Notes: a model not told the origin generated them from the letters alone. 64,000 nucleotides of DNA from an uncultured Verrucomicrobiae bacterium (GCA_963762565.1 CAVXLD010000007.1:512001-576000), one strand, 5' to 3'. Positions 8,787 through 36,951 are shown, counted from the stretch's first letter. Translations and numbers: made by a program.

Positions 8787-9389
8787 TCACAATACGTAAA
8801 GATCACAAAGGACACAAAGACTGAGAACAGAAATGCGGTGATTAGAGGGTTAAGCGCGTAATGCCGTTTTTGAGGACAAGCTCATGAAAGTTAATCAGGA
8901 GACCGAGCGGTTTCTTGAGTAATTTCATGTAACTGAGCAGCTGTGCTTTATCTATCGGCAGCACTTCCTCAACGACCTTGAACTCGAGGATCAGCACATC
9001 ATCCACCAGGAAGTCGAGCCGAAGCGGTTCTTCAAAAACGTATCCCTTGTACTCGATGGGCACGAGTAGCTCTCTCTGTACTGGGATCGCGCGCAGTTCA
9101 CACTCGCGTTGGAAGCATTTGCTATAGATGCTCTCGATCAAACCAGGCCCTTCGATTCGATGAACCTCGATAGCCGCTCCAATCGCGACGTGACTCCAGC
9201 CATTCGCACGTTCTCTTTCGTTCTTCATGTTTACGAGTCATAAGAACATAAAAATAAAATGGTGTAACTGTAAAACTCGTCCTGGAAACCAAACTAGAGA
9301 TCACAATACGGAAAGATCACAAAGACTGAACATACGAATCCGAATTGCAGTTTCAGTCTTTGTGACCTTTGTGATCTTTCCGTATTGTG
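8787..9389. mobile_element. Putative GxxExxY element: gene enclosed by 9-mer CACAAAG inverted arms
   Basis: Left arm tcacaatacgtaaagatcacaaaggacacaaagactga (8787-8824). Right arm tcagtctttgtgacctttgtgatctttccgtattgtg (9353-9389). An extra left arm at 9301-9329 forms a mini-element. Confidence 0.65.
8842..9228 (-). CDS. GxxExxY protein (PD-(D/E)XK nuclease-like)
   Basis: IGAAIEVHR..GPGLIESIY, RLDFLVDD.LILEFK, AQLLSYMKL, GLLINF. Confidence 0.93.
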   Translation of the reverse strand: MKNERERANGWSHVAIGAAIEVHRIEGPGLIESIYSKCFQRECELRAIPVQRELLVPIEYKGYVFEEPLRLDFLVDDVLILEFKVVEEVLPIDKAQLLSYMKLLKKPLGLLINFHELVLKNGITRLTL

Positions 9390-9413
9390 GATTTTCAGTT
9401 CTCTGGGGCCCGA

Positions 9414-10511
9414 TTAGAACCCAAACTCTGCGAGCTCCACTGCCCGGCTTTCCTGCATCGAGCGATACCCGGCTTCGACCAGTGCCATGGTCTTTAGATT
9501 ATCGGATGCGGATAACATTGGCGGCGTTCCGGTCCTTAGAGCGTATTGCAATTGTTCCATCACACCGGCAAAGGCATGCGGGAACCATCTGGTGTCCCAG
9601 GATGGTTGGAACCAATGACCGTCGGTTGTTTTCCTGGAACAGTAGCGAAGAGTTGAAGGCGATCCCGTTGGGTAATCCGGCCATCCGATCGTGCCCTGTG
9701 CAATACCATCCAGGCCTTCCACTCTCCACTTGATGTAGATGTCTGAGTCGAAGCCTTCTTGGCGCGGTCCTGACCAAACATCTTCCATGCTGACCGCCAG
9801 AACTTCTGAAGGAAACTTGAGGGTAGAAACAGTGATGCCGTCGGTATGCTCAAATTCGGTGCGAGGATCTCGCCTGACGGCAGTGTAAATTTCCAAAGGA
9901 TCGCCAAAGAGAAATCGTAATACATCGAGATGATGAATGCTCATATTAAGCAACGTCAGCCGGTGGTACCCGGCAAGAAACGTTTGCCAATGCGGTATCG
10001 CCCGCATCTCGATCGTTCCCAGAACCGGCGTTCCAAGTTCGTCGTGTTCGAGCAACTGCTTGAGAACGCGCATCGATTGATCGAACCGCATGTTCTGGTT
10101 AACCGATAGCACCTTATCGGTTATAGCCGCTTCTTCGACGATCGCTTTCGCCTGATTTAAATCCATTGCCAGCGGTTTTTGGGCGAGGATGCCGCGTACG
10201 TGTTTTTGCTTCAGAGCATACCGAATTAAATCCGGTTGTTGGTCAGGCGGGAAAGCGATATCGACGATCTCAACGTCAGGGTCTTCTATCAGTTCTCGCG
10301 GTGTCTGATGGACGGTGGGGATCTTCCAACGCCTAGCCACCTCGGCCGCTTTTTCCGCTTGCCGCGAAGCGATCGCAACAACCGGGAAATGAGCCATTGC
10401 ATAAGCCGACAGCTGTACATCGGCCACGATAAAACCCGCACCAATACAGCCGATCTTAAAGTCTCTGCATCGGATCTCCGGGTCCGGTTCGAAATTTAGC
10501 TGCTTTGCCAT
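9414..10511 (-). CDS. Gfo/Idh/MocA family oxidoreductase
   Basis: IGCIGAGFI, AQKPLA, NQNMRF, IHHLD. Start MAKQL, since the longer ORF runs into the repeat. Confidence 0.92.
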   Translation of the reverse strand: MAKQLNFEPDPEIRCRDFKIGCIGAGFIVADVQLSAYAMAHFPVVAIASRQAEKAAEVARRWKIPTVHQTPRELIEDPDVEIVDIAFPPDQQPDLIRYALKQKHVRGILAQKPLAMDLNQAKAIVEEAAITDKVLSVNQNMRFDQSMRVLKQLLEHDELGTPVLGTIEMRAIPHWQTFLAGYHRLTLLNMSIHHLDVLRFLFGDPLEIYTAVRRDPRTEFEHTDGITVSTLKFPSEVLAVSMEDVWSGPRQEGFDSDIYIKWRVEGLDGIAQGTIGWPDYPTGSPSTLRYCSRKTTDGHWFQPSWDTRWFPHAFAGVMEQLQYALRTGTPPMLSASDNLKTMALVEAGYRSMQESRAVELAEFGF

Positions 10512-10525
10512 AGTGGGGGAATCAG

Positions 10526-11011
10526 TCACAATACGGAAAGGCCACAAAGATCACAAAGACAGACAATTTAAACAGGAGACAAGGGAGGCAACAGAGTTAT
10601 AGGTTTCAGTCCTTCGCAACCCAGCGTTTCAGAGGTCCTCCGTTTCCTCTTTACGTCCTGTTAAAGAATCCGTCTTCGTGACCTTTGTGATCTTTGTGTA
10701 TTGTGGCCTCTGTCCGTTTGCGGCTGCTTAGTCCGTTAGGCGTGTATAGGCCGCTGCGAGGAGTAGTATCACAATACGGAAAGGCCACAAAGATCACAAA
10801 GACAGACAATTTAAACAGGAGACAAGGGAGGCAACAGAGTTATAGGTTTCAGTCCTTCGCAACCCAGCGTTTCAGAGGTCCTCCGTTTCCTCTTTACGTC
10901 CTGTTAAAGAATCCGTCTTCGTGACCTTTGTGATCTTTGTGTATTGTGGCCTCTGTCCGTTTGCGGCTGCTTAGTCCGTTAGGCGTGTATAGGCCGCTGC
11001 GAGGAGTAGTA
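10526..11011. repeat. Perfect 243-bp tandem duplication containing a nested CACAAAG element and the 3' end of the permease gene
   Basis: 10526-10768 matches 10769-11011 with no mismatch seen. Each unit has CACAATACGGAAAG arms plus an inner TTAAACAGGA...TCCTGTTAAA inverted repeat. Confidence 0.9.
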
Positions 11012-11963
11012 TGATGGCGCCGTAAAGAATCTGGCGAACCGACTCGGGTACGTCGAGGAGGGTCAGAATGCTATTCAACACGGTCAGGATCAACGCCCCG
11101 ACAATAGTGCCGGAATAACCGCCTCGCCCGCCGAAGATCGAGGTGCCGCCGATGATCACGGCGGCGACTGACGGCAAGAGATAAACTTCTGCTAGCCTGA
11201 GCTCCGCGGAGTCGGTGCCCCCAACAATGATCAGTCCGGCGATGGCCGCGAGCAGTCCACAGGTGACATAGTTGACCAGGAGTATTCTCCACACGCGAAT
11301 ACCCGCCAGCGTGCATGCCTTGCTGTTGTCTCCGATTGCGTACAGCAGCCGCCCGTACCCGGTGCGTCGCAATACGAAGATCAGGATGATGGCGATCGGC
11401 ACCCAAATGATGAGATCATTCGGGATACCACCCAAGAACTTTCCGGCGCCCAGGTCCTCTATGAATTGCGGCACACGCGGTGCCTCGGCCATCTTTTTCT
11501 GGCTATAAACGACGAGCATTCCCTCCGTCATCAGTCCTGTTCCCAACGTCATCACCAAAGGTTGTACGCGCAGAAGTGCCACGCCGATTCCGTTGAGCAA
11601 GCCGACGACAAAGCCAACGCCGAGTCCATAAATTATTGCTAGCGCGACTCCCAGGCCGGAATGAGTCGCCATCAGGTAAGCAGAGGCAGTCGCCACGCTC
11701 GCGACGGAAAGATCAATTCCTCCGGTCAGCATGACCAGTGTCTGCCCGGCAGCGACGATTCCGAGCGGCGCCGCGAACAGGAGCATGTTGGATATCCAGA
11801 TCGGGTTGACTGTTCCAGGCCGAGCCATCTGAATACCGGCCACTAACACCAACAGCAGCAGAATCAGGGCAATAATTGTACGGGTACGCAGCAGCGATAC
11901 GAAGCCGCCACTGGTGATACCGACGATAACACGCGAGAAGACGGTTTTAGATCGCTCGCTCAT
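10971..11963 (-). CDS. Sugar ABC transporter permease (RbsC/CUT2)
   Basis: GGIDLSV, YAIGDN..A..LAGI, VAAVIIGGTSIFGGRG. Confidence 0.93.
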   Translation of the reverse strand: MSERSKTVFSRVIVGITSGGFVSLLRTRTIIALILLLLVLVAGIQMARPGTVNPIWISNMLLFAAPLGIVAAGQTLVMLTGGIDLSVASVATASAYLMATHSGLGVALAIIYGLGVGFVVGLLNGIGVALLRVQPLVMTLGTGLMTEGMLVVYSQKKMAEAPRVPQFIEDLGAGKFLGGIPNDLIIWVPIAIILIFVLRRTGYGRLLYAIGDNSKACTLAGIRVWRILLVNYVTCGLLAAIAGLIIVGGTDSAELRLAEVYLLPSVAAVIIGGTSIFGGRGGYSGTIVGALILTVLNSILTLLDVPESVRQILYGAIILLLAAAYTRLTD

Positions 11964-12955
11964 TTACGGTTTCGTTCCATCTCCACGAATCCGCCAATCA
12001 TCACGATCACGACGATCAGGGTGCCTTGGATCACTTGGCCGAAATTGGGATCGATATTCAGGAAAATCAGATCGGTCGGAATTAGGGTGAGCACGAATGC
12101 AGCCATTACCGGCCCGAGCATTCCGCCGCGTCCGCCGGCCAGGCTGACTCCTCCAACCACGACGGCCGCCAATCCGCTCAACGTGTAGTAGACCCCGGCG
12201 AGCGGCGCTCCGATTCCGGTCGTCATGGTCAGGCCAAGACCGCCGACGGCACTGAACAAGCCGGAAAATATGTAAGCGGCAAAGCGGGTACGATTGATGT
12301 TAACTCCGCTCCGGAAGGCCGCGGTGCGGTCGCTGCCGACCGCATAGAGCTGAAGCCCAAGCTTAGACCGGCGCAAAGGAATCCAGATCGCGCAGACAGC
12401 GACCACGAGCAGCACCAGAGCGTTCGGTAACCAGGCTGTGAGCAGTGTCCCCGTCCCGAGATTGAGGAATTCCTGTGGTGCCCCACCGCCCGGCTTCTCC
12501 ATGATGACAAGCGCGACGCCTCCCCAGATGAATCCCGTCGTCAGGGTCGCCACGACGTCTGGGATCCGAGACAGTATCACGATCAGACCATTCAAGGCGC
12601 CGATAGCTGCTCCGGCGATCAGAACCACCACAGCCAGGAGCAAGGATTCCGCGAAGCCCGCCTTCTCCATAGCGCTGGCCGCCAAAACATTGGCAACCGC
12701 CATCGCTGAGCCGATTGAAAGATCGATTCCGCCAGCGATCACCACGACGCTCTGTGCTGCGGCGGCGAACGCCAGCGGCAGGGCTCCCATGGCCAGCGAT
12801 TGCAGATCGAAGTCGGAGAACTGTGGATGAATGGCCACAGTGATCGCTAGAGACACAACGAGCAAGGCGGGCATGGAAAACAGGCCCGGGTCACGCCGCA
12901 GCGAACGCCGGAGACGTTGGGCGAGACCCATATTCGGTGCCGCGGGAACAGACAT
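11960..12955 (-). CDS. Sugar ABC transporter permease (RbsC/CUT2)
   Basis: GGIDLSIG, YAVGS...AAFRSGV, AAVVVGGVSLAGGRG. Confidence 0.93.
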   Translation of the reverse strand: MSVPAAPNMGLAQRLRRSLRRDPGLFSMPALLVVSLAITVAIHPQFSDFDLQSLAMGALPLAFAAAAQSVVVIAGGIDLSIGSAMAVANVLAASAMEKAGFAESLLLAVVVLIAGAAIGALNGLIVILSRIPDVVATLTTGFIWGGVALVIMEKPGGGAPQEFLNLGTGTLLTAWLPNALVLLVVAVCAIWIPLRRSKLGLQLYAVGSDRTAAFRSGVNINRTRFAAYIFSGLFSAVGGLGLTMTTGIGAPLAGVYYTLSGLAAVVVGGVSLAGGRGGMLGPVMAAFVLTLIPTDLIFLNIDPNFGQVIQGTLIVVIVMIGGFVEMERNRK

Positions 12956-12979
12956 TACCGACGATCCACCTCCAAAACG

Positions 12980-13068
12980 TCACAATACGGAAAGGCCACA
13001 AAGACAGAAACTAAAAACCGGATTCCTAGCCTCAGTCTTTGTGTCCTTTGTGACCTTTCCGTATTGTG
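12980..13068. repeat. Gene-less CACAAAG palindromic element
   Basis: tcacaatacggaaaggccacaaagac ... gtctttgtgtcctttgtgacctttccgtattgtg. Confidence 0.9.
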
Positions 13069-13097
13069 GATTTTCTGCATTTCTTCGGAGGACCTCA

Positions 13098-14600: not shown

Positions 14601-14668
14601 TGAATTACGGGACTGCCCAACGCGGGTTCAGATGCTGTCTGCCGTGACCATCGAAATGGTCCTAAGAG

Positions 14669-14945
14669 AATAGCCAGGTCTTTAGGCCTGGGAATAGGGC
14701 GTAATCATTGCCGCCCTGAAAGGGCGGCCGACGGGAACTGGTCATAGTAGCCAATCCGAGGCCGTTGTGGGACTGAGCCTGCAAACGGACGATCCATTTG
14801 ATCTGCAAATTATGGTCTTAGCCAATTTTGCTTCTCGGCATAAACCAGCACGCTCGGTCAGTCGCCCTTACAGGGCGGGCTTTGTTATGACTGAATCCCA
14901 GGCCAAAAGGCCTGGGCTATTATGAATAGCCGCTTCGCGGCAAAA
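14669..14945. repeat. Multi-hairpin REP-like palindromic element
   Basis: atagccagg..ggcctggga and gccctgaaggggc on the left are mirrored by gcccttacagggc and tcccaggcc-aaaa-ggcctgggctat on the right. Confidence 0.7.
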
Positions 14946-16056: not shown

Positions 16057-16196
16057 GGATTGAGACTTAGCTTGATTGTTCGAACGTTAATGGGGGGAGC
16101 GATCTTTGTCGAAAACGGACCACGATCGCGAATTAATGATGATCGCAAAAAAATTCGTTCCCTGTCAAACCGCCTCTTTAGAACAGGGGCAATATA

Positions 16197-17578: not shown

Positions 17579-18487
17579 ATGCAACTTGGATTCGTAACCG
17601 CGATTGTGCCGGAGTTGTCCCTGGAAGATGTCCTCTCGTTCGCTGCTACCGAGGGATTTCGATGTGTTGAGGTAATGTGCTGGCCGACGGGCAAGGCGGA
17701 AAGGCGTTACGCCGGCGTAACGCATCTGGATGTTACTTCATTTGATGAACGTGCGGTGACGCGGACGCAAGAATTAACCGTCAAATACGGAGTTCAGATC
17801 TCGAGCCTTGGCTATTACCCAAATCCGCTCTGCGCCGATCCCACCGAGCGGGCGACCTATGCGGACCACCTGCGGCTGGTTATCCAAGCATCAGCTCGTC
17901 TAGGAGTCGGCGTAGTGACGACATTCATCGGGCGGGATCATGTCAAATCCTTTGAAGAGAATTGGAAGCTATTCGATTCGGTCTGGAAACCGCTGATCGC
18001 CTTTGCTGGTGATCACAATGTCAAGGTGGGAATAGAGAATTGCCCGATGCTGTTTAGCGAGGACGAGTGGCCCGGCGGAAAAAACCTGGCTATCTCGCCC
18101 GAAATCTGGCGGCGCATGTTTGACGCTATCCCCAGCAAAAACTTCGGCCTCAACTTCGATCCCTCTCATTTGGTTTGGCAGAAGATCGATTACGTTCGAG
18201 CGATCCATGAATTTGAGGATCGAATCGTTCATGTACATGCCAAGGATGACAAAGCGCTTGGAGACCGGTTGTACGATCGTGGGATTTTGGGCCTCGGTTG
18301 GCATATCCCTAAACTCCCGGGATTCGGTGACGTCCAATGGAATCAATTTTTTTCCGCATTGACTGACATCGGGTATCGGGGTCCGGTCTGCGTGGAGGTC
18401 GAAGATCGCGCCTACGAATATTCGCTTGAAGGCAGGAAAAAAGCTCTCCGCCAATCCCATCAGTTTCTGAAACAGTTCGTCGTTTGA
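17579..18487 (+). CDS. Sugar phosphate isomerase/epimerase (TIM barrel)
   Basis: [31 protein letters not shown]. Confidence 0.92.
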
Positions 18488-18618
18488 ACCGGCAGGATGT
18501 CACAGTACAGAAAGATCACAAAGGCCACTAAGACTGAAGCCGGGGTCGGCGGAGGCAAGAATGCAAGCAGGGCTAAACTTTGGGACCTTTCAGCAGGTTC
18601 CGTTTTCCGTCTTGTGAG
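18487..18618. repeat. CACAAAG element (right border of the cassette, right arm degenerate)
   Basis: aaccggcaggatgtcacagtacagaaagatcacaaaggccac... The spacer agcagggctaaactttgg...ttcagcaggttcc is shared with 16197-16348. Confidence 0.8.
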
Positions 18619-20264: not shown

Positions 20265-20274
20265 GGGCTGGGGG

Positions 20275-20570
20275 ATGATTGTGATTGGTGATTAGTGACC
20301 GGTGATTTGTGGGGCAGGCCTAATTTGGTAGAGGCTCCCGAAAGACCGTGTGTTTCGCCAGGGGAAATCGACGGACACCAAATGAGTAGTGGGTTACTCC
20401 CTCGAAACGCGCCGAGCCGTGATCCAGCGCTCGACCACGGCTCGGCGCGCTTTTTGGTGTATCCGCATAGTTCGGCCAGGACAATCGGCTGCTTCGATTC
20501 AATTGCGCGGTCTTTCGGGAGCCTCGCCTCACCAAATTAGGCCACCGCCACCCACCAATCACCAATCACG
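20275..20570. repeat. GAGGCTCCCG-family element with GTGATTG heptamer arms
   Basis: ggcctaatttggt.gaggctcccgaaagaccg / cggtctttcgggagcctcgcctcaccaaattaggcc inverted repeat. Inner gcgccgagccgtg/cacggctcggcgc hairpin. Confidence 0.85.
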
Positions 20571-20578
20571 CTTCCGAC

Positions 20579-21421
20579 CTATCCTTGCACCGTAAGCTGG
20601 CGTTGTTCGCCCAAACGCTCGACCCCTAGTCTAACCACCTGACCTGGTTTCAAAAAGACGGGGGGTTTCATGGCCATACCCACACCCGGAGGAGTTCCAG
20701 TGGCGATGACATCGCCCGGGTTCAGAGTCATGATCCGGCTCAAATAACTCACCAGTATCGCAACGCTGAACACCATGGTTTTGGTGGTACCGGATTGCCG
20801 GCGGACACCATCAATTTCAAGCCAGAGCTGCAGATTCTGCGGATCTGGTACTTCGTCCTTAGTCACCAACCAGGGACCAATCGGTCCGAACGTATCGAAT
20901 CCCTTGCCTTTATCCCAGGTTGGTCCGCGCTCGATTTGGTACTCGCGTTCGGAGACATCATTCACGACGCAATAGCCCGCCACGTAATTCAACGCGTCCG
21001 TCTCGGATACCCGCTGCGCGGTTTGTCCAATGATCACACCTAGTTCGACTTCCCAATCCGTCTTGGTCGACCCTGGCGGAATTTGAATGTCATCGTTGCA
21101 ACCGTTGACGCAGGTAACCCATTTGTTGAACACGACCGGCTCTTTTGGAATAGCTGCACCGGTCTCTGCGGCGTGATCCGCGTAGTTGAGCCCAATCCCG
21201 ACAAATTTGCCGATAGCACCTACACAGGCACCAATTCTCGGTTCGCCGGGAACCGGCGGCAGCCCGGCAGGATCGATCGCCCGTAGCCGGGCCAGCGATT
21301 CGTCAGATAGAACCGGCCCCGCAACATCCGTTATCACAGCTGACAGATCTCGTATTTTACCGTCGTTATCGAGAAGTCCCGGCTTTTCCTGGCCCTTTGG
21401 CCCGTAGCGCAACAATTTCAT
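20579..21421 (-). CDS. Fumarylacetoacetate hydrolase family protein (2,4-diketo-3-deoxy-sugar acid hydrolase-like)
   Basis: GLNYADHAAE, DWEVELG, NDVSER, GKGFDTFGPIGP, TGTPPGVG. Start MKLLRYG. Confidence 0.93.
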   Translation of the reverse strand: MKLLRYGPKGQEKPGLLDNDGKIRDLSAVITDVAGPVLSDESLARLRAIDPAGLPPVPGEPRIGACVGAIGKFVGIGLNYADHAAETGAAIPKEPVVFNKWVTCVNGCNDDIQIPPGSTKTDWEVELGVIIGQTAQRVSETDALNYVAGYCVVNDVSEREYQIERGPTWDKGKGFDTFGPIGPWLVTKDEVPDPQNLQLWLEIDGVRRQSGTTKTMVFSVAILVSYLSRIMTLNPGDVIATGTPPGVGMAMKPPVFLKPGQVVRLGVERLGEQRQLTVQG

Positions 21422-21508: not shown

Positions 21509-21771
21509 CCAATAGCCGATAGCCAATAGCCAAAGGGGATAGCAGCGGCGTGTGGGCGTATCGGCGTATCGGCGTTAGCGCGTAGCGACGTCGTATATGC
21601 CGCGTTAATGAAATCGTGTCGGGGTGGCACGGATGGGACCTATAGGACACATGGGACTTATAGGAGCCGTCTCATTAGTCCCATTTGTCCCATAAGTCCT
21701 ATCCGTGCCATCCCAAGGCGGTCTCATTCAGCCAGCGTACTCCACGTCGTTGCGCCCACACGCCTACACGC
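21509..21771. repeat. Nested repeats: AATAGCC heptamers, 8-mer GGCGTATC arms, inner 9-mer GGGACCTAT element (21625-21710)
   Basis: ggcgtgtgggcgtatcggcgtatcggcg ... cgcccacacgcctacacgcc encloses tggcacggatgggacctatagg ... cctatccgtgcca. Confidence 0.8.
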
Positions 21772-21772
21772 C

Positions 21773-22519
21773 TCATCCCGTCCATCCGCCGTCAATCACA
21801 TGAGTCTGTCCCGTGGTGAACCCGGACTCATCCGATGCCAGGTACACCGCCAGCGCCGCGATTTCTTCGGGGCGACCCAACCGGCTCATCGGTTGCCGGG
21901 CGACGAACACCTCGCGAACCTCGGTTTCCGTCTTACCTTCGGATTGAGCTTGGACCGCTATCCGTTGGGCAAGCGATGGGGAATCTACGGTGCCAGGACA
22001 AATCGCGTTGCAGCGAATCTTTTGCTTTAAAAAATCAGCAGCTATGGACTTGGTGAGTCCGACCACCGCCGCCTTGGTGACGCTATATACAAATCGGTTC
22101 GGAACACCTTTTATCGATCCAGCTACGGAAGACACATTAATAATCGAAGCGCCGCCGCGAGCGACCATGTCGGGAAGAAACGCTTTAGTCAGCCGAAACA
22201 TCGAACGGACGTTCAACGTCATAGCAAAATCCCAATCTTCTTCTGTGCATTCCAGGATAGACCCAGGATGAACGAATCCGGCGCAATTGACTAAGACATC
22301 CAGCGCGCCGATCTGGGCCGCACATTCCGCGATCTTGTCTGGTTTGGTAACGTCCAGGTAAAGAGGCTTTACGCCGGTTAGCTTGGCCAAGGCTTCCGCG
22401 TTGATATCGGCGGCGAATACTTGCGCTCCTTCTCTTACAAAGGCGTCTGCAGTTGCGCGTCCAATGCCTTGTGCCGCCGCTGTAACCAAAGCGATCTTAT
22501 TAGAAAGTCGTCCACTCAT
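21773..22519 (-). CDS. SDR oxidoreductase (2-keto-3-deoxy-L-fuconate dehydrogenase/BDH2-like)
   Basis: TAAAQGIG, NCAG.VH.G, YSVTK, NAICPGTVDSPSL. Co-oriented with the FAH hydrolase. Confidence 0.9.
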   Translation of the reverse strand: MSGRLSNKIALVTAAAQGIGRATADAFVREGAQVFAADINAEALAKLTGVKPLYLDVTKPDKIAECAAQIGALDVLVNCAGFVHPGSILECTEEDWDFAMTLNVRSMFRLTKAFLPDMVARGGASIINVSSVAGSIKGVPNRFVYSVTKAAVVGLTKSIAADFLKQKIRCNAICPGTVDSPSLAQRIAVQAQSEGKTETEVREVFVARQPMSRLGRPEEIAALAVYLASDESGFTTGQTHVIDGGWTG

Positions 22520-22522
22520 TAC

Positions 22523-22646
22523 GGTTTGTAGGTTCTAAGTTGTAGGTTCTAAGTTGCGGGTTCTAAGTTGCGGGTTCTAGGTCGGGTAGCGACCAACTTA
22601 AAACCTGCAACCTACAACCTAAAACTTAAAACCTATAACCTATAAC
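22523..22646. repeat. Inverted heptamer arrays (TAGGTTC/TAAGTTG vs AACCTA(A/C/T))
   Basis: About 8 units on the left, gtcgggtagcgac loop, about 7 complementary units on the right. Confidence 0.85.
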
Positions 22647-23656: not shown

Positions 23657-23753
23657 TCACAATACGGAAAGGTCACGAAGGACACAAAGACTGAACCTAC
23701 GATGTCATCTTCAGTTTCAGTCTTCGTGTCCTTTGTGGTCTTTACCTATTGTG
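23657..23753. repeat. Gene-less CACAAAG palindromic element
   Basis: tcacaatacggaaaggtcacgaaggacacaaagactgaa ... ttcagtcttcgtgtcctttgtggtctttacctattgtg. Confidence 0.88.
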
Positions 23754-23932
23754 GATCTTCCGTTCTCAGCAGCGGCCCCCGGTTGGGAGCTAAAATCAAA
23801 CCAGAGATGGGAGCCTCACCCCACCAAAAACCATTCAGCGTTTCCGCAACGCGGTTTAACGACCGGTGGAACCGCTTGGCAGACTCGGCTTGCCTGTGGC
23901 AACCAGCACCCTATCGTGTACATTCAATTTTT

Positions 23933-26769: not shown

Positions 26770-26860
26770 GGTGAACTCCGGTTGGTGCTCTGGAGGCAGC
26801 TGTTTAGCGAAAAACAGCTTAATGGCCGGAACCAGCTTATAACAGAACAAACGGCCGGAG

Positions 26861-26966
26861 AAATGACAAATGACAAATGACAAATTGTTGCGGTACCCGT
26901 TGCGCGTACCGCCTAGATCCCCGCGCTTCTCGGCGGATCTGTCATTTGTAATCTGTTATTTGTCAT
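26861..26966. repeat. TGACAAA heptamer-armed element
   Basis: aaatgacaaatgacaaatgacaaat ... tgtcatttgtaatctgttatttgtcat. Confidence 0.85.
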
Positions 26967-28325: not shown

Positions 28326-28424
28326 ATGACAAATGACAAATGACAGATGACAGACTTCGGAACCTACGCACGGCGATTTTCGTCTGTTCTTCAATTTGTC
28401 ATCTGTCATGTGTCATTTGTCATT
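28326..28424. repeat. TGACAAA heptamer-armed element
   Basis: atgacaaatgacaaatgacagatgacag ... tttgtcatctgtcatgtgtcatttgtcatt. Confidence 0.85.
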
Positions 28425-28452: not shown

Positions 28453-28480
28453 CCTTTCACGCTTGTAATGTTCGGGCAAG
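28453..28480 (+). promoter_or_regulatory. Conserved upstream motif of degP copy 1
   Basis: CCTTTCACGCTTGTAATGTTCGGGCAAG, 27/28 identical to 30933-30960 and the same distance from the ATG. Confidence 0.7.
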
Positions 28481-28525: not shown

Positions 28526-30028
28526 ATGAACTCAAAAAAGAGAACTTCAGTATGGGTAACGGCGATTGCGGGAGCTGCTCTTCTCGCGGGCGGTACCGCG
28601 GCCTCCAGCGCTAGCCCGGGGAATGACAACGCCCAAAAACCACCTCTTTCTATTAAGACCGACAATGCGCCGATTGATCGAGATCCGAAACTCGGTAATT
28701 CGTTTGCGCCAATCGTCCAAAAGGTGATTACGAGCGTGGTGCAGGTCGATGTCACCGGCAAATCAAACAACGCGAGGATGTTAGGCAACTCCGATTTGCA
28801 GGACCAGTTGCGGCGGTTCTTCGGCCGCGGATTCCAAATCCCGGACCAGCCCGAGACGCCGAATCAGAAGGCTCTGGGCTCAGGTGTCATCATCTCTGCA
28901 GACGGTTATATCCTGACCAATAATCATGTGGTCGAAGACAGCAAAACCATTCAAGTCACGCTAAATGACGGGCGAAAATTTTCCGCCAAGGTGATCGGTA
29001 CTGATCCCGAGACGGATGTCGCTCTGGTAAAGATCGATGCGACTAATCTGGAACCGATAACCCTGGCCGACAGCGATTCCGCTCAGGTGGGTGACGTCGT
29101 TCTGGCTGTCGGGGACCCATTCGGAATCGGCACCACCGTCACGGAAGGAATTATCAGTGCGAAGAATCGTACGCGGGTTACCAATGCTGAGGCGGACGAA
29201 GACTTCATTCAGACCGATGCGGCGATCAATCCTGGTAATTCAGGGGGAGCCCTGGTTGATATCGAAGGCCGGCTGATCGGAATCAACACTTCCATCTTGT
29301 CGCGCTCCGGCGGCAACCAAGGTATCGGTTTTGCCGTTCCTTCTAATCTTTGCCGTTGGGTAGCGGACAGCTTGATCACAAAGGGCAAGGTCGAGCGCGG
29401 CTTTCTTGGCGTACATATTCAGACCCTGACGCCGGAACTAGCAAAAGCATTTAAGTCCAACCGAGTCAGTGGCGCCGTAGTTACTGACGTGACTCCGAAC
29501 GGTGCCGCCGAACAGGCTGGGGTAAAAAGCGGCGATGTGGTTTTTGAGTTCAATAATAAGCCGATCGAGTCTGCTGAACAGTTAAAGCTGCAAGTGGCTG
29601 AAACGGCGCCGGGTAGTTCCATCCCGGTCCAAGTCGATCGCAACGGCCAGGTGATGAACCTGAATATAACACTGAAAGAACTGACCGCGGATGCCTTGGC
29701 TAAGAATGAACCGAATGCGAGCCGGGGCGATCATGATGCATTGAGCGGTGTCGAGGTGGCTAACCTCGATCGAGATGTTCGCGACGAACTCAAAGTTCCG
29801 AACGCGGTGAGAGGTGCTGTCATCACACAGATTGAGCCGTCTTCTGCCGCGTATGAAGCAGGCCTGCGAGAAAACGACGTGATTCTTGAGATCAATCGGC
29901 AGCCGATTCAATCAACTGAGGACTTTACCAAGGCGACTGGAGGTAAGGGTGGTAATGGCGAGACCCTGGTAAAGGTCTGGAGCCAGAACGGAGTTCACTA
30001 CGTAGCCGTTCAGGAAGGCAACGGCTAA
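28526..30028 (+). CDS. degP: DegP/HtrA (Do-family) serine protease with two PDZ domains
   Basis: LGSGVII, TNNHVV, TDVAL, QTDAAINPGNSGG, GIGFAVP, two PDZ domains. Confidence 0.95.
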   Translation: MNSKKRTSVWVTAIAGAALLAGGTAASSASPGNDNAQKPPLSIKTDNAPIDRDPKLGNSFAPIVQKVITSVVQVDVTGKSNNARMLGNSDLQDQLRRFFGRGFQIPDQPETPNQKALGSGVIISADGYILTNNHVVEDSKTIQVTLNDGRKFSAKVIGTDPETDVALVKIDATNLEPITLADSDSAQVGDVVLAVGDPFGIGTTVTEGIISAKNRTRVTNAEADEDFIQTDAAINPGNSGGALVDIEGRLIGINTSILSRSGGNQGIGFAVPSNLCRWVADSLITKGKVERGFLGVHIQTLTPELAKAFKSNRVSGAVVTDVTPNGAAEQAGVKSGDVVFEFNNKPIESAEQLKLQVAETAPGSSIPVQVDRNGQVMNLNITLKELTADALAKNEPNASRGDHDALSGVEVANLDRDVRDELKVPNAVRGAVITQIEPSSAAYEAGLRENDVILEINRQPIQSTEDFTKATGGKGGNGETLVKVWSQNGVHYVAVQEGNG

Positions 30029-30103: not shown

Positions 30104-30885
30104 CGGTAGGGCGAAAATCTCGGCGCGCCCTGGATTGGCCATTCAAGTTAGGCGTATCCGCGCCGGATTTGAGCCGCGGCGTGCGGATGGCGTCTCCCAT
30201 GAATTCTGACGTTCCTAATCTGCCCGTTCTGAGATGACACGTGAATTCAAGGCCAGCAATGATAACGCTGAAACACTTCGCCTCGGTAGGGCCAATCCTC
30301 GATTCTGTCTACGAGTCCTGCTTTGACCGGGTTCTCATCCATGTAGGTTCGCTTCTCATTGTAATCCTCATAACAACGAATGCGGTGATGAAACGATCCT
30401 GCTTGCCAGCGCAATTCCGGGTCCTTCAAGATGCGTGCAACTCCGCGTTTCCAAACTGTTACCCAGTCGTCTAAGGGCAATGGCTGTTCTCCGGGCTCGG
30501 CGAAGAAGTGTACATGATTGGGCATAATCACGTACGGACTGACGATCCAGTGTGCGTGTCGGAGCCACGCCGCACGAAGAGCTGCATGGACTTGGGCATT
30601 TGCTAGCAATCGTTTTCGTCCCTTGGTGCAGACCGTGGTAAACACCAAAGTTGGGACCGAGTCTAATTCTAAGACCCCTCGAGCTGGGTGTTTTCGACGA
30701 TGATATAACACAAAGATATTATATGTTGTAACTGTTAGCAGCGTCAAAAGCAAATGAAGCCGCGGGCTTTTCCAAAAGGACCACGCCCTGGGCGAAACCA
30801 CCCGCACGGCGCGGCTCAAATCCGGCGCGGAACCAACGAAAAGGGCGTAGCACGTCCAGGGCGCGCCGAGATTTTCGCCCTACCG
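30104..30885. mobile_element. RAYT locus flanked by inverted GTAG-type REP ends
   Basis: Perfect 31-bp inverted repeat 30104-30134 / 30855-30885 (cggtagggcgaaaatctcggcgcgccctgga). Second near-perfect inverted repeat 30157-30190 / 30798-30831. Confidence 0.88.
30247..30711 (-). CDS. rayT: REP-associated tyrosine transposase (RAYT, Y1/HUH)
   Basis: FTTVCT..R, YVIMPNHVHF (HUH), WQ..SFHHRIR, YMDENPVKAGLV, DWPY. Probable GTG start at 30711. Confidence 0.9.
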   Translation of the reverse strand: MLYHRRKHPARGVLELDSVPTLVFTTVCTKGRKRLLANAQVHAALRAAWLRHAHWIVSPYVIMPNHVHFFAEPGEQPLPLDDWVTVWKRGVARILKDPELRWQAGSFHHRIRCYEDYNEKRTYMDENPVKAGLVDRIEDWPYRGEVFQRYHCWP

Positions 30886-31005: not shown

Positions 31006-32517
31006 ATGAAATCGAAAGATCGAAGTTTAGGGTGGATGATGGCGGTGGCGGGAGTTGGCATTCTCGCGAGCGGCACCGCTGTTTTCAGCGCTGTAACCGG
31101 CAACGACCAAAAGCCGCCGCTCAACCTGAAATACGACAATACAGCGATCAACCGGGACACGACGCCGGGACATTCCTTTGCCCCGATCGTCCAAAAGGTA
31201 ACGCCAAGTGTGGTGCAGGTGTATGTCACTACCAAGACGGGTACCGGAAATTTTGGGATGGGGAATCAGGATCTGCAGGATCAACTGCGCCGCTTCTTCG
31301 GACGGCAATTCCCGCAAATGCCGGAGCAACAAAGCCCCGGTGAGAAGGCGCTCGGGTCCGGTATCGTTATTTCGTCGGACGGATATATCTTGACCAACAA
31401 TCACGTCGTCCAGAATGCCCGCACGATTCAGGTCAAGTTGACCGATGGGCGGACATTCAGCGGTAAGGTAATCGGAACCGATCCGGAGACCGATGTGGCT
31501 TTGGTAAAGATTGACGCGGACAACCTCCAGCCGATCACGTTCGCGGATAGCGATCAGGCTCAGGTCGGCGACGTGGTGCTAGCTGTTGGTGATCCGTTCG
31601 GGATCGGTCAAACTGTTACCGAAGGCATTATCAGTGCGAAAAATCGGCAAGGTGTATCGGATGACAGCTCTTCCGATGAGTCCTTCATTCAGACCGATGC
31701 AGCCATCAATCCCGGTAATTCCGGTGGACCGTTGATCGACACGGATGGCCGGCTGGTAGGAATGAATACCGCAATCCTGTCGCGGTCAGGCGGTAACCAG
31801 GGAATCGGATTTGCCGTTCCTTCGGACCTCTGCCGTTGGGTAGCGGATAGCCTAATTAAGAACGGTAAAGTCGAGCGCGGTATGCTCGGAGTAGTGATTC
31901 AGAACCTGTCGCCTGAGCTTGCTAAAGCCATGAATAGTCACCGCACCAGTGGCGCTCTGGTCTCTGAGGTGACGCCTGGCACCCCCGCTGACAAAGCGGG
32001 CATTAAGAGCGGCGACGTTGTGACCCAATTCGATAACAAACCGGTCGACGACGAAAACAGTCTGAAACTGATGGTGGCAGAAACTGCGCCAGGTAAATCG
32101 GTTCCGATTCAAGTCGATCGTAACGGACAGACTCTGAATCTGAGCGTGACGTTAGAATCACTCTCTGCGAAGACCACCCTGGCCAAGAACGAGCCGAACT
32201 CGAATGGGAATGAACCGCAAGGCGACGCTTTGCATGGCGTCGGCGTGCAAGACTTGGATCGTCAAACTCGGGAGGAGCTAAATATCCCGGCCAATGTTCA
32301 CGGCGCGTTGATCACCCAAGTAGATCCTTCGTCTCCAAGCGGTGAGGCCGGACTCCGCGAAGGTGACGTGATCGAAGAGATTAATCATCAGCCCGTCCGA
32401 AATGCGGAAGACGCTGATCGGTTAACCGAAGGCAAGGGCGGCACGGGTGAGACGCTAGTCAAGATCTGGAATCAAAACGGCAGCCACTACGTTGCCGTCC
32501 AGGAAGGGAATGGCTAA
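31006..32517 (+). CDS. degP: DegP/HtrA serine protease, tandem paralog
   Basis: Same motifs as 28526..30028, identical C-terminus HYVAVQEGNG. Confidence 0.95.
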   Translation: MKSKDRSLGWMMAVAGVGILASGTAVFSAVTGNDQKPPLNLKYDNTAINRDTTPGHSFAPIVQKVTPSVVQVYVTTKTGTGNFGMGNQDLQDQLRRFFGRQFPQMPEQQSPGEKALGSGIVISSDGYILTNNHVVQNARTIQVKLTDGRTFSGKVIGTDPETDVALVKIDADNLQPITFADSDQAQVGDVVLAVGDPFGIGQTVTEGIISAKNRQGVSDDSSSDESFIQTDAAINPGNSGGPLIDTDGRLVGMNTAILSRSGGNQGIGFAVPSDLCRWVADSLIKNGKVERGMLGVVIQNLSPELAKAMNSHRTSGALVSEVTPGTPADKAGIKSGDVVTQFDNKPVDDENSLKLMVAETAPGKSVPIQVDRNGQTLNLSVTLESLSAKTTLAKNEPNSNGNEPQGDALHGVGVQDLDRQTREELNIPANVHGALITQVDPSSPSGEAGLREGDVIEEINHQPVRNAEDADRLTEGKGGTGETLVKIWNQNGSHYVAVQEGNG

Positions 32518-32546
32518 CAGAGGAGCCTGTTAAAGTGGTAGCAGCA

Positions 32547-32584
32547 ACGCCCGCATGGTTTGGAGACCGTGCGGGCGTCTTGTT
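32547..32584 (+). terminator. Probable terminator hairpin
   Basis: acgcccgcatggt-ttggag-accgtgcgggcgt followed by cttgtt. Stem resembles that after degP copy 1. Confidence 0.55.
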
Positions 32585-32801
32585 GCGAATGGGGGCGAAT
32601 GGGCGAGACGGCGAATGGGCGTATAGGCGAAGGGGCGACGCCGAGAAAAAGCGATGGGACGGTAATAAGCTTCGAAAGCGCTGATAAGCATTTAGTTCGG
32701 CAGCCGCCGGATTAGGCCCAAGGATTATGCAAGTAACAGGAACCAGTACCGAAGGCCCAAGAGAAATCGCCGTTTCGCCGATTCGCCCATTCGCCGTTTC
32801 G
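32585..32801. repeat. 8-mer GGCGAATG-armed element
   Basis: ggcgaatgggcgagacggcgaatgggcgtataggcgaa ... tcgccgtttcgccgattcgcccattcgccgtttcgc. Confidence 0.8.
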
Positions 32802-32846
32802 CAAACGACGCTCGCGCAAACCCCCGAACTCGCGCAAATTACAACT

Positions 32847-33521: not shown

Positions 33522-35043
33522 ATCGATTTCGACCGATTCGGCCTCGCAAGCGAGGCACGCTCCAGTGTCTGCGGGAGTATGGCGCGACAGGCGGCTTTGG
33601 CACAGCTTCACTGTCCGGCTGAGTTTTTACTATGCCAGCGCGTTTGTGATCAGCGCTGCCCTCCTCTTCGCGCTCCTGTACTTTCTTCAGGCGACGTTAT
33701 TCGATTGGCGCGAACGGGATCCCATCGATAAGTTTTTGAAGCAATGCGTTGTTGCTTATCAACAACACGGATCAGAGGGACTGATGAACGCCGTCAAGAC
33801 GCAGGGGGCAGACCCGAGCGAGGGCCCGTTCTTTGTCAGCGTCATTTTCCGAAAGGGCGCGACACTCTACTTAAAAGAACCAACGGATTGGTTTAAACTC
33901 CCGAACCTGACCTCAGTTCTGGAGCACACCCAACAGAATGGCGGTTGGAGCCGGCTACCGGCCGATGAACGGAGCGAATATGTGTTGGAAAGCGCCCGGT
34001 TGTCGGACGGCCCGGTTTTAGTAGTGGGCCGCAAAATTTATCGCAGCGAAACCTTAACCGGCCCATTTGTTACGGCAGCGCTGATCCTGTTGGTGCCGAC
34101 TCTCTTGCTCGCAATCGCTGCCGGTGCGGTGTTTGCCCACCGGGCCACCGCTCCAGTGAGGCAAATGTTGCAGACAGCGCGCTCGATTATCAACACGGGG
34201 AACCTGGCTGAGCGAGTGCCGGAAACCCAAGAGCAAGACGAGTTAGCGGAACTGGCCCGCCAATTTAACCGGGTGTTGGAACAGAATCAGCGGCTGATCC
34301 GCGGCATGCGGGAAGCACTCGACAACGTAGCCCATGATCTGCGTTCGCCCCTGACTCGGCTGCGTGCCTCGGCTGAACTGGCACTGGAGGCGGACACGTC
34401 TGAATCCGCGCGGGACGCTTTGGCTGACTCGATAGAGGAATCAGATCGGGTGTTAACCATGTTGAATACTCTCATGGATGTTACCGAAGCCGAAAACGGA
34501 ATGATGCGCTTGAATCTGGAGCGCTGTTCCATCAGCTCACTGTTGGAAGAAGTAACCGATCTTTATCAGCTCGTTGCTGAGGAGAAGTCGATCCAGATCA
34601 AGAATCTGTTCATCAGTCCCGGATATGTGGAGGTGGATCCAAATCGAATGCGTCAAGCGTTTGCCAACCTGGTGGATAATGCCGTTAAATACACGCCCAA
34701 CGGCGGATTGGTGGAGATTGAATGCAACACAAAGGACGGCCAAGTTCTCGTAACGATTCGTGATAATGGGATCGGTATTCCACCGGCAGAACAAAACCGC
34801 ATTTGGGAGCGGCTTTACCGCGGTGACGCCAGCCGGTCGCAACGCGGTCTTGGCCTGGGATTGAGCCTCGTAAAAGCGGTGGTGGAAGCTCACTCCGGGA
34901 CTATCGCGCTCAAGAGCGAACCAGGGAAAGGCTCGGAGTTTACGGTCAGGCTGGCGGCAGTCCCGGCAGCGCTGGCCGGGATGGTCGCCGCTGGGAACGG
35001 GGTCGAGGTGAGGAGTGGCGCGAAAGTAAGCAGTAAGCAGTGA
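33502..35043 (+). CDS. HAMP-containing sensor histidine kinase
   Basis: Two TMs, [38 protein letters not shown]. Stop codon lies in the AGT(A/G)AGC array. Confidence 0.93.
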
Positions 35044-35140
35044 GCAGTGAGCAGTGAGCAGTAATCAGTGTGTCAGTAATCAGTAAAGACGACTATGTCG
35101 TGACCGGTTTTGCCGGTACTGCTTACTGCTTACTGCTTAC
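35025..35140. repeat. T(A/G)AGCAG heptamer-armed element between convergent genes
   Basis: agtaagcagtaagcagtgagcagtgagcagtgagcagtaatcagt ... tactgcttactgcttactgcttac. Confidence 0.85.
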
Positions 35141-35164
35141 CGATTCTGCGCCACCTCTTACGTC

Positions 35165-36202
35165 TCACTTTTCGTTCTCGGTCTCGCCACGCCTGATTTC
35201 CTGGAACATGTGCGCCGCTGAATCGCCGTCGATCAGGAGGCCGTTCACGAAGCCCGTTTTCAGGATTCCTTGAGCGGGTCTCAGTTTGCTGCGTCCGCCG
35301 GCGAGCAAGATAACCTCATGCTTTCTGAGGGCTTCTAGATCGATCGCTAAAGTTCGATCGTTAAGTTCAGAGGGCACTACCTCGCCTTTGGCATTAAAGA
35401 ATTTGCCCATCGTATCGCCCACGGCGCCTGCTTTCCGGAGCTCACTGAGCTCTAACGCGGATAGGTAACGGTTCTCGAACAGAAACGCGCGTTCATCGCA
35501 TTCGCCAACGCTAATCAGATAGAAATCGGCTTTCTCAGCCAGCGCTAAGGTTTCTTGAACGATTCTCTGAGACATCAGAATCTGGCGGTCAGCAACCGTG
35601 TTAGCGATAAATGGCACCGGGAGAAAATGACCTTCACCGCCAGTTTTAGCGGCTAGGTGATGGACAACCTCGAACAGGTTTGCAGCCAGGTTCCGGGTTA
35701 ACGACCCCATAACCGAGACGAATCTAGCCTGTGGCCGGCGCATCGCGGGAAGGAGTCTGGCAATCTCTGCGGTAGTACGTCCCCAGCCAACGCCGATGAT
35801 GCATTCCTCATCCACCTGCATTCGTTCCCGTAGTAAATCCACAGCCACCATGGCTACTGCCCGGCGCGCGATTGGACCTTCGTCAGCCAGCTTTGCCGGA
35901 GGCAGCATTTTCGCCGGATGTTCCACCGAGTCCGAGAGAAGAGGCGGAGTGGCTCGACAAAAATCCAGTCCATAATGTCGGCGAATGGTTTCTTCGACTT
36001 CAGCCATCGGTCCGAACCGATGTTCAATGGAGATTTTGACGATACCGGCTTCGCGGGCCTCGGCTAATAGCCTGGCGACTTTAACTCTGGAAACCCCGAG
36101 GATTTCTGCGGTTTGTTCCTGGGTATTGCCACCGACATAGTAAAGCCAGGCGGCTCTGACGAGTTGATCGGACTCAGTGGTGATAGGTTCGGAGGGGTGC
36201 AT
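35165..36202 (-). CDS. SorC/DeoR-type sugar-binding transcriptional regulator
   Basis: AAWLYY..G.TQ...A..LGVSRVKV.RLL, IGVGWGRT, GAVGD..G.FF. Confidence 0.93.
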   Translation of the reverse strand: MHPSEPITTESDQLVRAAWLYYVGGNTQEQTAEILGVSRVKVARLLAEAREAGIVKISIEHRFGPMAEVEETIRRHYGLDFCRATPPLLSDSVEHPAKMLPPAKLADEGPIARRAVAMVAVDLLRERMQVDEECIIGVGWGRTTAEIARLLPAMRRPQARFVSVMGSLTRNLAANLFEVVHHLAAKTGGEGHFLPVPFIANTVADRQILMSQRIVQETLALAEKADFYLISVGECDERAFLFENRYLSALELSELRKAGAVGDTMGKFFNAKGEVVPSELNDRTLAIDLEALRKHEVILLAGGRSKLRPAQGILKTGFVNGLLIDGDSAAHMFQEIRRGETENEK

Positions 36203-36276
36203 CAAAAGAAGGCGGCTAACGGAACAAAAATCGATTCACGCACCTGTTCGTCAAGTGCGAATAACTACCGAAGCTC

Positions 36277-36951
36277 CACAGAAGATCACAAAGGTCACAA
36301 AGAACTGATGTGATTCCGCTACTGTCCTATGGGCCGCCTATCGACTGCGGTCCTCAAAGCGTCATGCGAACAATTCCGTCTTTGAGCATGATTTCATGAA
36401 AATTGAACAGAAGGCCTAATGGCGTGTTCAATAACTTCATGTAACTGAGAAGCTGGGCCTTGTGGACGGGCAGGATTTCTTCAACGACTTTGAACTCCAG
36501 GATCAAGACATCGTCGACTAAAAAATCGAGCCGAAGCGGTTCCTCAAAAACGTGCCCTTTGTACTCGATCGGAACGAGCAATTCGCGTCGAACCGGAATC
36601 GACCTCAGATCACATTCCCTCTGGAAACACTTGCTGTAGATACTCTCGATCAGTCCCGGACCCTTGATGCGATGGACCTCGATTGCTGCTCCGATCACCA
36701 GATGACTCCACGCGTTCGCGCGTTCTCTTGCTTCTTTTGTTTGATCAGGTTCCATATAGACAGAACAAATAGTAAAGAAGTTATATATACTGATAATGAA
36801 TGTTATGACAAGCTGTTTTGTTCTGATCGGTAGGCCTTGCGGGAAGACTAGCGACCCGACAGAAAACTCCAGGACTCGACTGCAACGACGTCAGTGATGC
36901 GCCTCCGGCCAACCCTTCCTAGGTCTTTGTGACCTTTGTGATCTTCTGTTA
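36277..36951. mobile_element. Second putative GxxExxY element with 9-mer CACAAAG inverted arms
   Basis: acagaagatcacaaaggtcacaaaga (~36278-36303) and tctttgtgacctttgtgatcttctgt (~36924-36949) form a perfect inverted repeat enclosing the gene. Confidence 0.7.
36354..36755 (-). CDS. GxxExxY protein (PD-(D/E)XK nuclease-like)
   Basis: GPGLIESIY, RLDFLVDD.LILEFK, HKAQLLSY. About 20 differences in 125 aligned aa versus 8842..9228 (manual count). Confidence 0.93.
   Translation of the reverse strand: MEPDQTKEARERANAWSHLVIGAAIEVHRIKGPGLIESIYSKCFQRECDLRSIPVRRELLVPIEYKGHVFEEPLRLDFLVDDVLILEFKVVEEILPVHKAQLLSYMKLLNTPLGLLFNFHEIMLKDGIVRMTL

Follow-up and report, generated by a model that had tools for sequence, protein, structure and literature searches.

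The DNA analyzed here, a window of 64,000 nucleotides (nt) from an uncultured Verrucomicrobiae bacterium (GCA_963762565.1, CAVXLD010000007.1:512001-576000; all window coordinates count from its first letter), carries two genes of the GxxExxY (PDDEXK_3) family of predicted nucleases, each bracketed by inverted arrays of CACAAAG 9-mers, referred to below as arms, that also occur in the window as gene-less copies. The same packaging of gene and arms was found in genomes of many phyla. We put at roughly 0.5 the probability that gene and arms together make up a mobile foldback cassette, that is, a long-lived and rarely moving selfish unit with gene-less derivatives, analogous to RAYT/REPIN.

Profile searches placed both genes in the family, with matches to PF13366 PDDEXK_3 (E 8.6e-33 and 113.6 bits for gene 1, E 1.5e-34 and 119.3 bits for gene 2; cutoff 22) and to TIGR04256 GxxExxY (114.6 and 119.8 bits, respectively; cutoff 35). 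The inverted pair enclosing cassette 1 (8782-8824 / 9353-9395) measures 43 nt and is 91% complementary, and that enclosing cassette 2 (36278-36306 / 36921-36949) measures 29 nt and is 97% complementary, in agreement with an original prediction, made from the window, that both genes sit inside inverted 9-mer arms. The identity of about 84% given there for the two genes is correct as a protein figure (83%, 106/127) but not for the coding DNA, which is 73.8% identical. The proportion of synonymous sites that differ (pS) is 0.82, which is saturated, and that of nonsynonymous sites (pN) is 0.10, for a pN/pS of 0.12, indicating that the window genes are old paralogues under purifying selection. When the two cassettes were aligned, the coding region and the arms could be matched but the inner non-coding parts could not, and the arms of both cassettes are identical over 20 nt. 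Given that synonymous sites in the genes between them are saturated, this identity indicates that the arms are constrained or homogenized.

The arm sequences are strongly enriched in the window. The arm word GATCACAAAGGNCACAAAGA occurs 14 times at up to 3 mismatches compared to 0.01 expected, and TCACAAAG occurs 20 times compared to 1.9 expected, while a profile built from 17 arms found no window match outside 8787-36956. The terminus CACAATACGGAAAG, which had been described as an arm end, also occurs 14 times at up to 2 mismatches compared to 0.32 expected, but cassette 2 is without the TCACAATACGG terminus. All seven of the gene-less copies that had been listed are present, between 9301 and 23754, but the hairpin at 9301 doubles as the right arm of cassette 1, its right half (9353-9389) also pairing with the arm at 8787-8824 in a gene-plus-hairpin architecture, the copies at 10526 and 10769 are two copies of one 243-bp tandem duplication, and the copy placed at 18487 in fact lies at 18500-18617 and has lost one arm. 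DNA folding of five gene-less copies gave four strong hairpins (z -6 to -10) and none for 18500-18617 (z -0.2), a copy that has its loop and an extended terminus, GACATCCTGCCG, in common with the one at 16192. The description of the copies as always intergenic holds only if the open reading frame (ORF) starts at 10547, 16271, and 23576 are over-extended, since as longest ORFs these run into arms; in the 16271 ORF, the first Pfam domain starts only at residue 37.

The packaging was then scored in a comparison set of 80 loci on 80 genome contigs of other species, whose GxxExxY proteins are 44-67% identical to the product of gene 2 (P0002) and which come from Verrucomicrobiota, Planctomycetota, Acidobacteriota, Chloroflexota, Bacteroidota, Cyanobacteria, Gemmatimonadota, Beta-, Gamma-, Delta-, and Zetaproteobacteria, and one Methanothrix bin. 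The enclosure score was the best local alignment of the 350 nt upstream of a gene with the reverse complement of the 350 nt downstream, and the threshold of 16 was the 95th percentile of 300 mismatched flank pairs. Among the 73 loci with enough flank, 44 GxxExxY genes scored at least 16, compared to 15 of 838 other ORFs from the same loci, so that enclosure across genomes goes well beyond chance, as had been predicted. Ten of the 838 controls scored at least 20, and these were two PDDEXK_3 genes, one RAYT gene with repetitive extragenic palindromic (REP) sequences, three ordinary genes between gene-less arrays, one insertion sequence (IS)-like gene, and three unknown genes. The RAYT gene, found in locus L001 (NF047646, 85 bits), amounts with its REPs to an unplanned positive control.

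The arms in every clear case were tandem 8-10-mers with the core [CA][AG]C[AGC][AG]AG, for example CACAAAG, CGCAAAG, CACGGAG, CACAGAG, AACGAAG, or CGCCAAG, with the purine-rich form on the 5' arm of either strand and outer ends that were often ACC(A/G)C or ACAG(A/G)AGG. Arrays of at least two tandem cores numbered 330 in the 80 loci and the window, compared to about 31 in dinucleotide shuffles. By the strict core pattern, 46 of 74 loci had both arms, 11 had one, and 17 had none, and the number of units matched between the arms in 40 of the 46 two-armed loci. Several of the armless loci had variant cores (CACATAG, Bacteroidota), and others showed reversed polarity, as expected when complete hairpins flank the gene; a complete hairpin was present upstream of the gene in 15 of the 74 loci and downstream in 17. 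Counted from the arrays, 38 of 102 plus/minus array pairs enclosed a GxxExxY ORF by a strict containment test, a further 11 of the 17 pairs with arrays over 300 nt apart did so on inspection, and 47 of the 102 were gene-less hairpins with loops of 6-153 nt, distributed over 26 of 81 sources. Tandem duplication of a hairpin with its flank was seen independently in four sources, with periods of about 243 nt in the window (10526-10949), about 105 nt in L002 (9804-9975), about 468 nt in L054 (8845-9403), and about 185 nt, in three copies, in L045 (10560-11080).

A second sample of seven plasmid or chromid records, annotated by others, contained canonical arms in two, from Bernardetia and Bacteroides finegoldii. 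The gene on a Sphingomonas parapaucimobilis plasmid (L083, 571-1002) has an upstream arm only, with none downstream, and lies between fabD and fabG, 2 nt before the fabG start. Hairpins of another unit, GGACTGAAGAA, stand on both sides of the gene on a Gemmatirosa plasmid (L084), and direct repeats of about 70 nt with tandem ACAAATC units flank the gene on a Prevotella nigrescens plasmid (L087, 400-1100), indicating that more distant family members use other repeat units and arrangements. The Treponema record has an 11-nt inverted repeat at its GxxExxY gene, and the Persicobacter record has no flanking repeat there.

Arm type, defined by the first three bases of the core, was compared with the protein tree, on which 43 of 69 proteins could be labeled. 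Arm type changed 7 times on the tree compared to a mean of 20.5 in shuffles, a value equalled in 0 of 200, so the predicted co-variation of the repeat unit with the protein phylogeny was found. This clustering indicates joint inheritance, not recognition. In locus L065, two cassettes lie side by side and differ in arm type, and in each the type is that of the clade to which its protein belongs, indicating that the arms go with the cassette and not with the host genome. Left and right arms were also compared between cassettes, and nine non-overlapping cassette pairs gave 15 joint changes, 1 shared left/right difference, and 40 one-cassette mismatches, while all 19 pairs, which overlap, gave 41, 2, and 77, respectively. 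These joint-change counts indicate that the two arms of one cassette evolve in concert. Agreement between the arms was 94% at core positions and 82% at spacer positions, a comparison that is partly circular since the core itself was used for locating the arms. Across 46 cassettes and 1894 positions, a wobble test gave 63 vs 63 transitions and 122 transversions, with no G-U bias in the sense transcript. These results support the conclusion that the arms keep both their motif and their mutual complementarity, the complementarity being without sign of selection specific to the sense transcript.

The cassettes typically occupy tight junctions of co-directional genes. Where both neighbors (within 1.5 kb) were co-directional, the GxxExxY gene had the same sense in 32 of 36 loci, a count that rests on ORF calls that are crude in G+C-rich loci; the neighbor orientations of 55 loci were 32 '++', 13 '-+', 6 '+-', and 4 '--'. 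The arms abut the ORF: the 3' arm follows the stop codon at a median distance of 19.5 nt, and in L033 the start codon follows immediately after the 5' arm. The trpE|trpG junction holds a cassette in four Betaproteobacteria and two Gammaproteobacteria (TrpE by Pfam in L033, L076, L068, L057, and L069; TrpG by Pfam in L033, L076, L057, and L069; trpG of L068 and the genes of L037 assigned through alignment), and in L033 the cassette extends from the base after the trpE stop to 5 nt before the trpG start. Between L033 and L076, TrpE is 86% identical and the GxxExxY proteins are 57% identical, and the arms are CGCAAAG in the one and CACAGAG in the other. The L076 protein at this junction is 65-68% identical to those of acidobacterial and planctomycete cassettes and 67% identical to that of the syntenic L068, and L033 and L037 are 93.6% identical over the whole region, with GxxExxY proteins 96% identical. 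From these sequence comparisons, the difference between L033 and L076 can be read as a replacement, or as a separate insertion, at the same junction.

Empty orthologous sites in relatives, another expectation of the original prediction, were found for one hairpin and one cassette. A 166-nt gene-less hairpin stands just after a stop codon in L037 where L033 is contiguous, the flanks being 92-94% identical; TAAACC is found on either side of the filled site and TAAGCC a single time at the empty one, so that the insertion is accompanied by a 6-bp direct repeat, 7-14 nt outside the inverted repeat. L076 carries a second cassette, with CACCAAG arms, between trpD and trpC, where the L033 spacer is 3 nt. 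The two trp junctions occupied by cassettes have no evident target sequence in common. Between trpG and trpD, where L033 has 21 nt, the same L076 operon also has an insert (10985-11759) that encodes a Phd-family antitoxin (TIGR01552, E 4.6e-16) and, after it, an ORF that is PIN/VapC-like by eye; three junctions of this operon are thus occupied, two by GxxExxY cassettes and one by a toxin-antitoxin pair.

The protein is predicted to be a minimal Cas4/RecB-like nuclease. G32, D77, E87, K89, and Y105 are invariant in 74 aligned sequences and E37, Y40, and Q101 are conserved in at least 90% of them, so that the GxxExxY motif is present together with the D, ExK, and QxxxY residues of the PD-(D/E)XK/RecB-like core. 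An AlphaFold model (pLDDT, the predicted local distance difference test score, 96.3) found its best PDB fold match in Cas4 SSO0001 (4ic1; E 1e-3, template-modeling score 0.51), followed by the Argonaute-associated Cas4-like ACE1, lambda exonuclease, and the nuclease domains of RecB, AddAB, and AdnAB; a search of the PDB by sequence matched no chain. Only the PDDEXK_3/GxxExxY profiles match the two genes in Pfam and NCBIfam, with no DDE or HUH/Y1 transposase domain. The protein has its closest named relative in Chthoniobacterales, and the best-matching loci are from Verrucomicrobiota. The family contains 38,195 representatives of 50%-identity clusters at E <=1e-3, and tblastn against a phage collection gave no match. 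The top scorers of the family search were two-domain tandem fusions of 240-295 aa (P0123, P0124, P0125, and P0132); the first domain keeps D and ExK in all four that were read, the second has lost D/ExK in three, and P0132 stops inside its second domain. The dead second site in these fusions hints that the single-domain protein may work as a dimer. The frame in L015 (9977-10384) is split into 9977-10186 and 10187-10384, the sole evident pseudogene among about 84 genes.

Table 1 Coordinates of the two nuclease genes, their arms, and the gene-less copies in the window
Feature	Position	Strand	Remarks
Cassette 1 arm, gene's 3' side	8787-8824		Terminus TCACAATACG, then 9-mers ATCACAAAG, GACACAAAG, then ACTGA
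GxxExxY / PDDEXK_3 gene 1 (P0001, 128 aa)	8842-9228	minus	Pfam and NCBIfam profiles
A+T-rich spacer upstream of gene 1	9229-9300	minus	One weak sigma-70-like match, not above chance
Complete small hairpin	9301-9389		DNA fold z -8.9
Gene-less copy, 115-nt loop	10526-10706		First copy of 243-bp tandem duplication
Gene-less copy	10769-10949		Second duplication copy, identical over element and right flank
Gene-less hairpin	12980-13069		Between two permease/ATPase genes of an ABC sugar-transporter operon; z -6.1
Gene-less copy, 71-nt loop	16192-16339		z -9.8
Decayed gene-less copy	18500-18617		Left arm intact, right degenerate; no fold (z -0.2)
Gene-less hairpin	23657-23754		Between divergent genes; z -6.8
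Cassette 2 arm, gene's 3' side	36278-36306		ACAGAAG, ATCACAAAG, GTCACAAAG
GxxExxY / PDDEXK_3 gene 2 (P0002, 133 aa)	36354-36755	minus	Pfam and NCBIfam profiles
Cassette 2 arm, gene's 5' side	36921-36949		Inverted-repeat partner of 36278-36306

According to the mobile foldback cassette reading, a GxxExxY gene would form, together with the inverted arrays of 8-10-bp units on its two sides, one heritable, occasionally mobile unit that settles in intergenic spacers, typically tight co-directional junctions, in sense orientation, and stays there for a long time. The arms would be its cis-acting ends, for which both the core motif [CA][AG]C[AGC][AG]AG and mutual complementarity would be needed, and gene-less hairpins with the same arms would be its non-autonomous derivatives. 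We infer that the encoded nuclease recognizes the repeated units and cuts the folded arms, in single-stranded or cruciform form, thereby starting the copying or excision of cassettes and hairpins, and that the foldback state may be what keeps the two arms alike. That the nuclease is the mobility enzyme of its own element is a tentative proposal.

Several observations weigh against this reading. To our knowledge, no PD-(D/E)XK nuclease transposes DNA alone. Target-site duplications adjoining the arms were not in evidence among 76 elements (k=2, 7 vs 5.7 expected; k>=4, 0/76), and the 6-bp repeat at the sole clean insertion is offset from the inverted repeat and does not abut it. Cognate gene-less copies are only 2.4 times denser in their own locus than in other loci when cassettes are masked, and the arm words are common across phyla, so that shared 12-mers are uninformative for matching cognate arms. 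A comparison of protein residues with arm type had only two independent pairs on supported branches, with no residue tied to arm type and no power. The loops differ among the window's gene-less copies, indicating that these are old and that there was no recent burst, and cargo-free hairpins of other units in the same window indicate that foldback hairpins as such need no GxxExxY gene. Fixed and syntenic loci, which the original prediction had regarded as evidence against mobility, were found in part: many cassettes are syntenic across species or genera (L029/30, L061/64, L053/63, L005/12, L039/56/59/71, L013/16/17, and L001/18), indicating that movement is rare, but insertion polymorphisms were found as well. 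The proposed autonomous/non-autonomous pair is thus partly supported by the enclosure of the genes, the recurrence of gene-less copies in other sources, and these polymorphisms, but not in the form of a simple active transposon, given the synteny, the lack of duplications, and the age of the copies.

The main rival explanation, which we regard as rather unlikely on its own and which is compatible with a mobile cassette and not exclusive of it, is an RNA-level device. The gene would then be a promoter-less hitch-hiker co-transcribed with the host operon, whose arms pair in the mRNA and loop the insert out; pairing would hide the ribosome-binding site of the nuclease and bring the upstream stop beside the downstream start, sparing operon expression, and the stem would perhaps be cut by RNase III, as in the intervening sequences of 23S rRNA. 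Any movement would be due to rare events of recombination or transfer, and the nuclease would serve a different purpose. The prevailing co-orientation with neighboring genes is consistent with such a device, as are the co-variation of the two arms, cassettes that span from the trpE stop to 5-6 nt before the trpG start or lie between fabD and fabG, and arms that abut the ORF so closely that most cassettes have no room for a promoter; promoter scans of the window likewise found nothing above chance. Terminator scans also gave no match in excess of chance. However, the arm mismatches lack the G-U bias of a structure kept in RNA, complementarity would suffice for a stem and leaves the conservation of the motif across phyla unexplained, the co-orientation count depends on crude ORF calls, and the window cassettes have A+T-rich spacers of 70-160 nt upstream of the gene. 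Rfam gave 0 matches in the window and 0 in 11 loci (147 kb).

A further possibility is that the gene-less hairpins are primary and the gene is their parasite, with the nuclease cutting the hairpins and repair from a gene-bearing copy, through the homology of the shared arms, installing the gene. PD-(D/E)XK homing endonucleases exist, the gene-bearing and gene-less arms of the window are identical despite anciently diverged genes, and forms in which a gene stands beside one hairpin (window 9301-9389) or between two are common, as the upstream and downstream hairpin counts given above illustrate. We consider such homing improbable, as both the arms and the gene differ between the two cassette lineages at trpE|trpG, indicating that the arms arrive with the gene, arm type tracks protein clade even inside the one genome of L065, and 29-45 bp is a short arm length for repair by recombination. 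Least probable is that the hairpins are REP-like host elements, moved by another enzyme such as RAYT or the TnpA of an IS200/IS605 element, or retained because they stabilize mRNA, with GxxExxY as mere cargo or neighbor: a RAYT-like protein encoded in the window (30247-30819), hairpins at ABC-transporter operon junctions in the fashion of REPs, and the other cargo-free foldback hairpins would fit this, but the repeat flanking the RAYT-like gene is unrelated and occurs window-wide only at its two flanks, GxxExxY genes from many phyla share one arm motif, and, apart from ordinary genes situated by chance between two hairpins, no other family among the enclosed control ORFs is cargo of this motif with abutting arms.

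Among known systems, RAYT/REPIN (PMC3337134, PMC2817692) offers an apt analogy in architecture. In both, a small gene lies between inverted repeat copies, the repeat also occurs gene-less as intergenic hairpin doublets, and the whole is long-lived and vertically persistent without target-site duplication. The differences are that the cassette protein is a predicted PD-(D/E)XK Cas4/RecB-like nuclease and RAYT is an HUH/Y1 transposase, that the cassette arms are 2-4 tandem 8-10-mers whereas a REP is a single palindrome, that at least two GxxExxY gene copies occur within 28 kb, and that the window's own RAYT-like gene has another repeat. Eukaryotic Foldback (FB) transposons have long inverted arms of short tandem repeats, and most copies are gene-less and few carry an ORF; they resemble the cassettes in these two respects and differ in being eukaryotic, with kilobase arms and other proteins, so that no homology is claimed. 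The cassettes share with IS elements and their miniature inverted-repeat (MITE) relatives the existence of autonomous and non-autonomous forms with common ends, inverted repeats, and insertion polymorphism between close relatives, but their genes are without a DDE or HUH domain, there is no abutting duplication, and the gene fills the space between the arms. Elements of the IS200/IS605 group, with their palindrome-associated elements, are alike in making no target-site duplications, and they work with hairpin ends in single-stranded DNA.

The intervening sequences of 23S rRNA (S23p, four-helix-bundle) are likewise small selfish ORFs in the loop of a long stem in a host transcript, but the cassettes lie between protein-coding genes, with no wobble bias in the arms, and Rfam scans of the window and of 11 loci showed no rRNA. 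The NCBI family text for GxxExxY reportedly refers to large paralogous families and to genes of this family in 23S rRNA intervening sequences. Cas4, RecB, and lambda exonuclease have the same fold, with catalytic residues D, ExK, and QxxxY in common, but GxxExxY proteins, at about 125 residues, comprise the core only and have no CRISPR context: no cysteine of a Cas4-type Fe-S four-cysteine module is among the invariant or near-invariant columns of the 74 sequences, and there was no Cas4 Pfam match at E <=1e-5 and no cas gene among 40 window ORFs scanned. Integron cassettes with attC sites are also promoter-less sense ORFs with hairpin-forming imperfect palindromes, and the hairpin-gene-hairpin form and the Prevotella plasmid locus with its direct repeats are similar to integron arrays; in the cassettes described here, however, the foldback arms on the two sides pair with each other and the cassettes are scattered singly at operon junctions, and no integrase was found among the 40 window ORFs scanned.

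Other foldback repeats are present in the window. Cargo-free intergenic hairpins of other units occur at 14674-14915, 20265-20580, 21527-21775, 22519-22638, 26858-26966, 28326-28424, 32594-32802, and 35026-35145, with units that include ATGACAA (two sites), AAGCAGT, GTAGGTTCTAAGTT, and GGCGAATG-like and GGTGATT-like sequences, so that foldback hairpins of tandem units seem to be a general feature of the genome. The RAYT-like ORF (30247-30819, minus strand, 190 aa; NF047646, E 3.3e-19, 69 bits, below the cutoff of 80) is flanked by a perfect 31-nt inverted repeat (30104-30134 / 30855-30885), with a second inverted pair at 30157-30199 / 30789-30831. The outer repeat is absent from the rest of the window, and the RAYT-like gene was rejected as a mobilizer of the 9-mer hairpins, since its own repeat is unrelated to them and confined to its flanks. 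Two DegP/HtrA-like protease paralogues (Trypsin_2 and two PDZ domains; 28526-30028 and 31006-32517) flank this element, with alike sequences, TTTCACGCTTGTAATGTTC, upstream of them near 28455 and 30935.

In the literature on GxxExxY/PDDEXK_3, no report of flanking repeats, mobility, or function was found; subscription journals are thinly covered, so a prior description is possible. In the passages seen, a survey of PD-(D/E)XK proteins lists the family as 'Unknown', with multiple transfers (PMC3424549), another paper mentions a GxxExxY domain beside a reverse transcriptase (PMC8934634), and neither of these passages mentions flanking repeats or mobility. The cassette thus looks like an apparently undescribed kind of selfish DNA. 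It would be a bolder claim, and one that we hold doubtful at present, that it represents a new class of prokaryotic mobile element, whose sole protein is a Cas4/RecB-type nuclease of about 125 residues, whose ends are foldback arrays of 9-bp iterons, and which moves through a single-stranded foldback intermediate without target duplication, inserts at operon junctions, and spawns hairpins.

No function has been assigned to the very large GxxExxY/PDDEXK_3 family, whose packaging with the arms gives it a testable role and concrete substrates, namely the arms themselves. If the nuclease recognizes the 9-mers, it would be a small, programmable-looking DNA-recognition module. The cassette would also account for a class of intergenic hairpins in Verrucomicrobiota, Planctomycetota, Acidobacteriota, Chloroflexota, Bacteroidota, Cyanobacteria, and Proteobacteria, and would stand beside RAYT/REPIN as a second, enzymatically distinct case of a gene living with its own palindromic repeats. 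Should the bolder claim of a new class prove true, a family of about 38,000 sequence clusters, annotated only as 'GxxExxY protein', would act as transposase-equivalent for an element that is widespread but has been overlooked.

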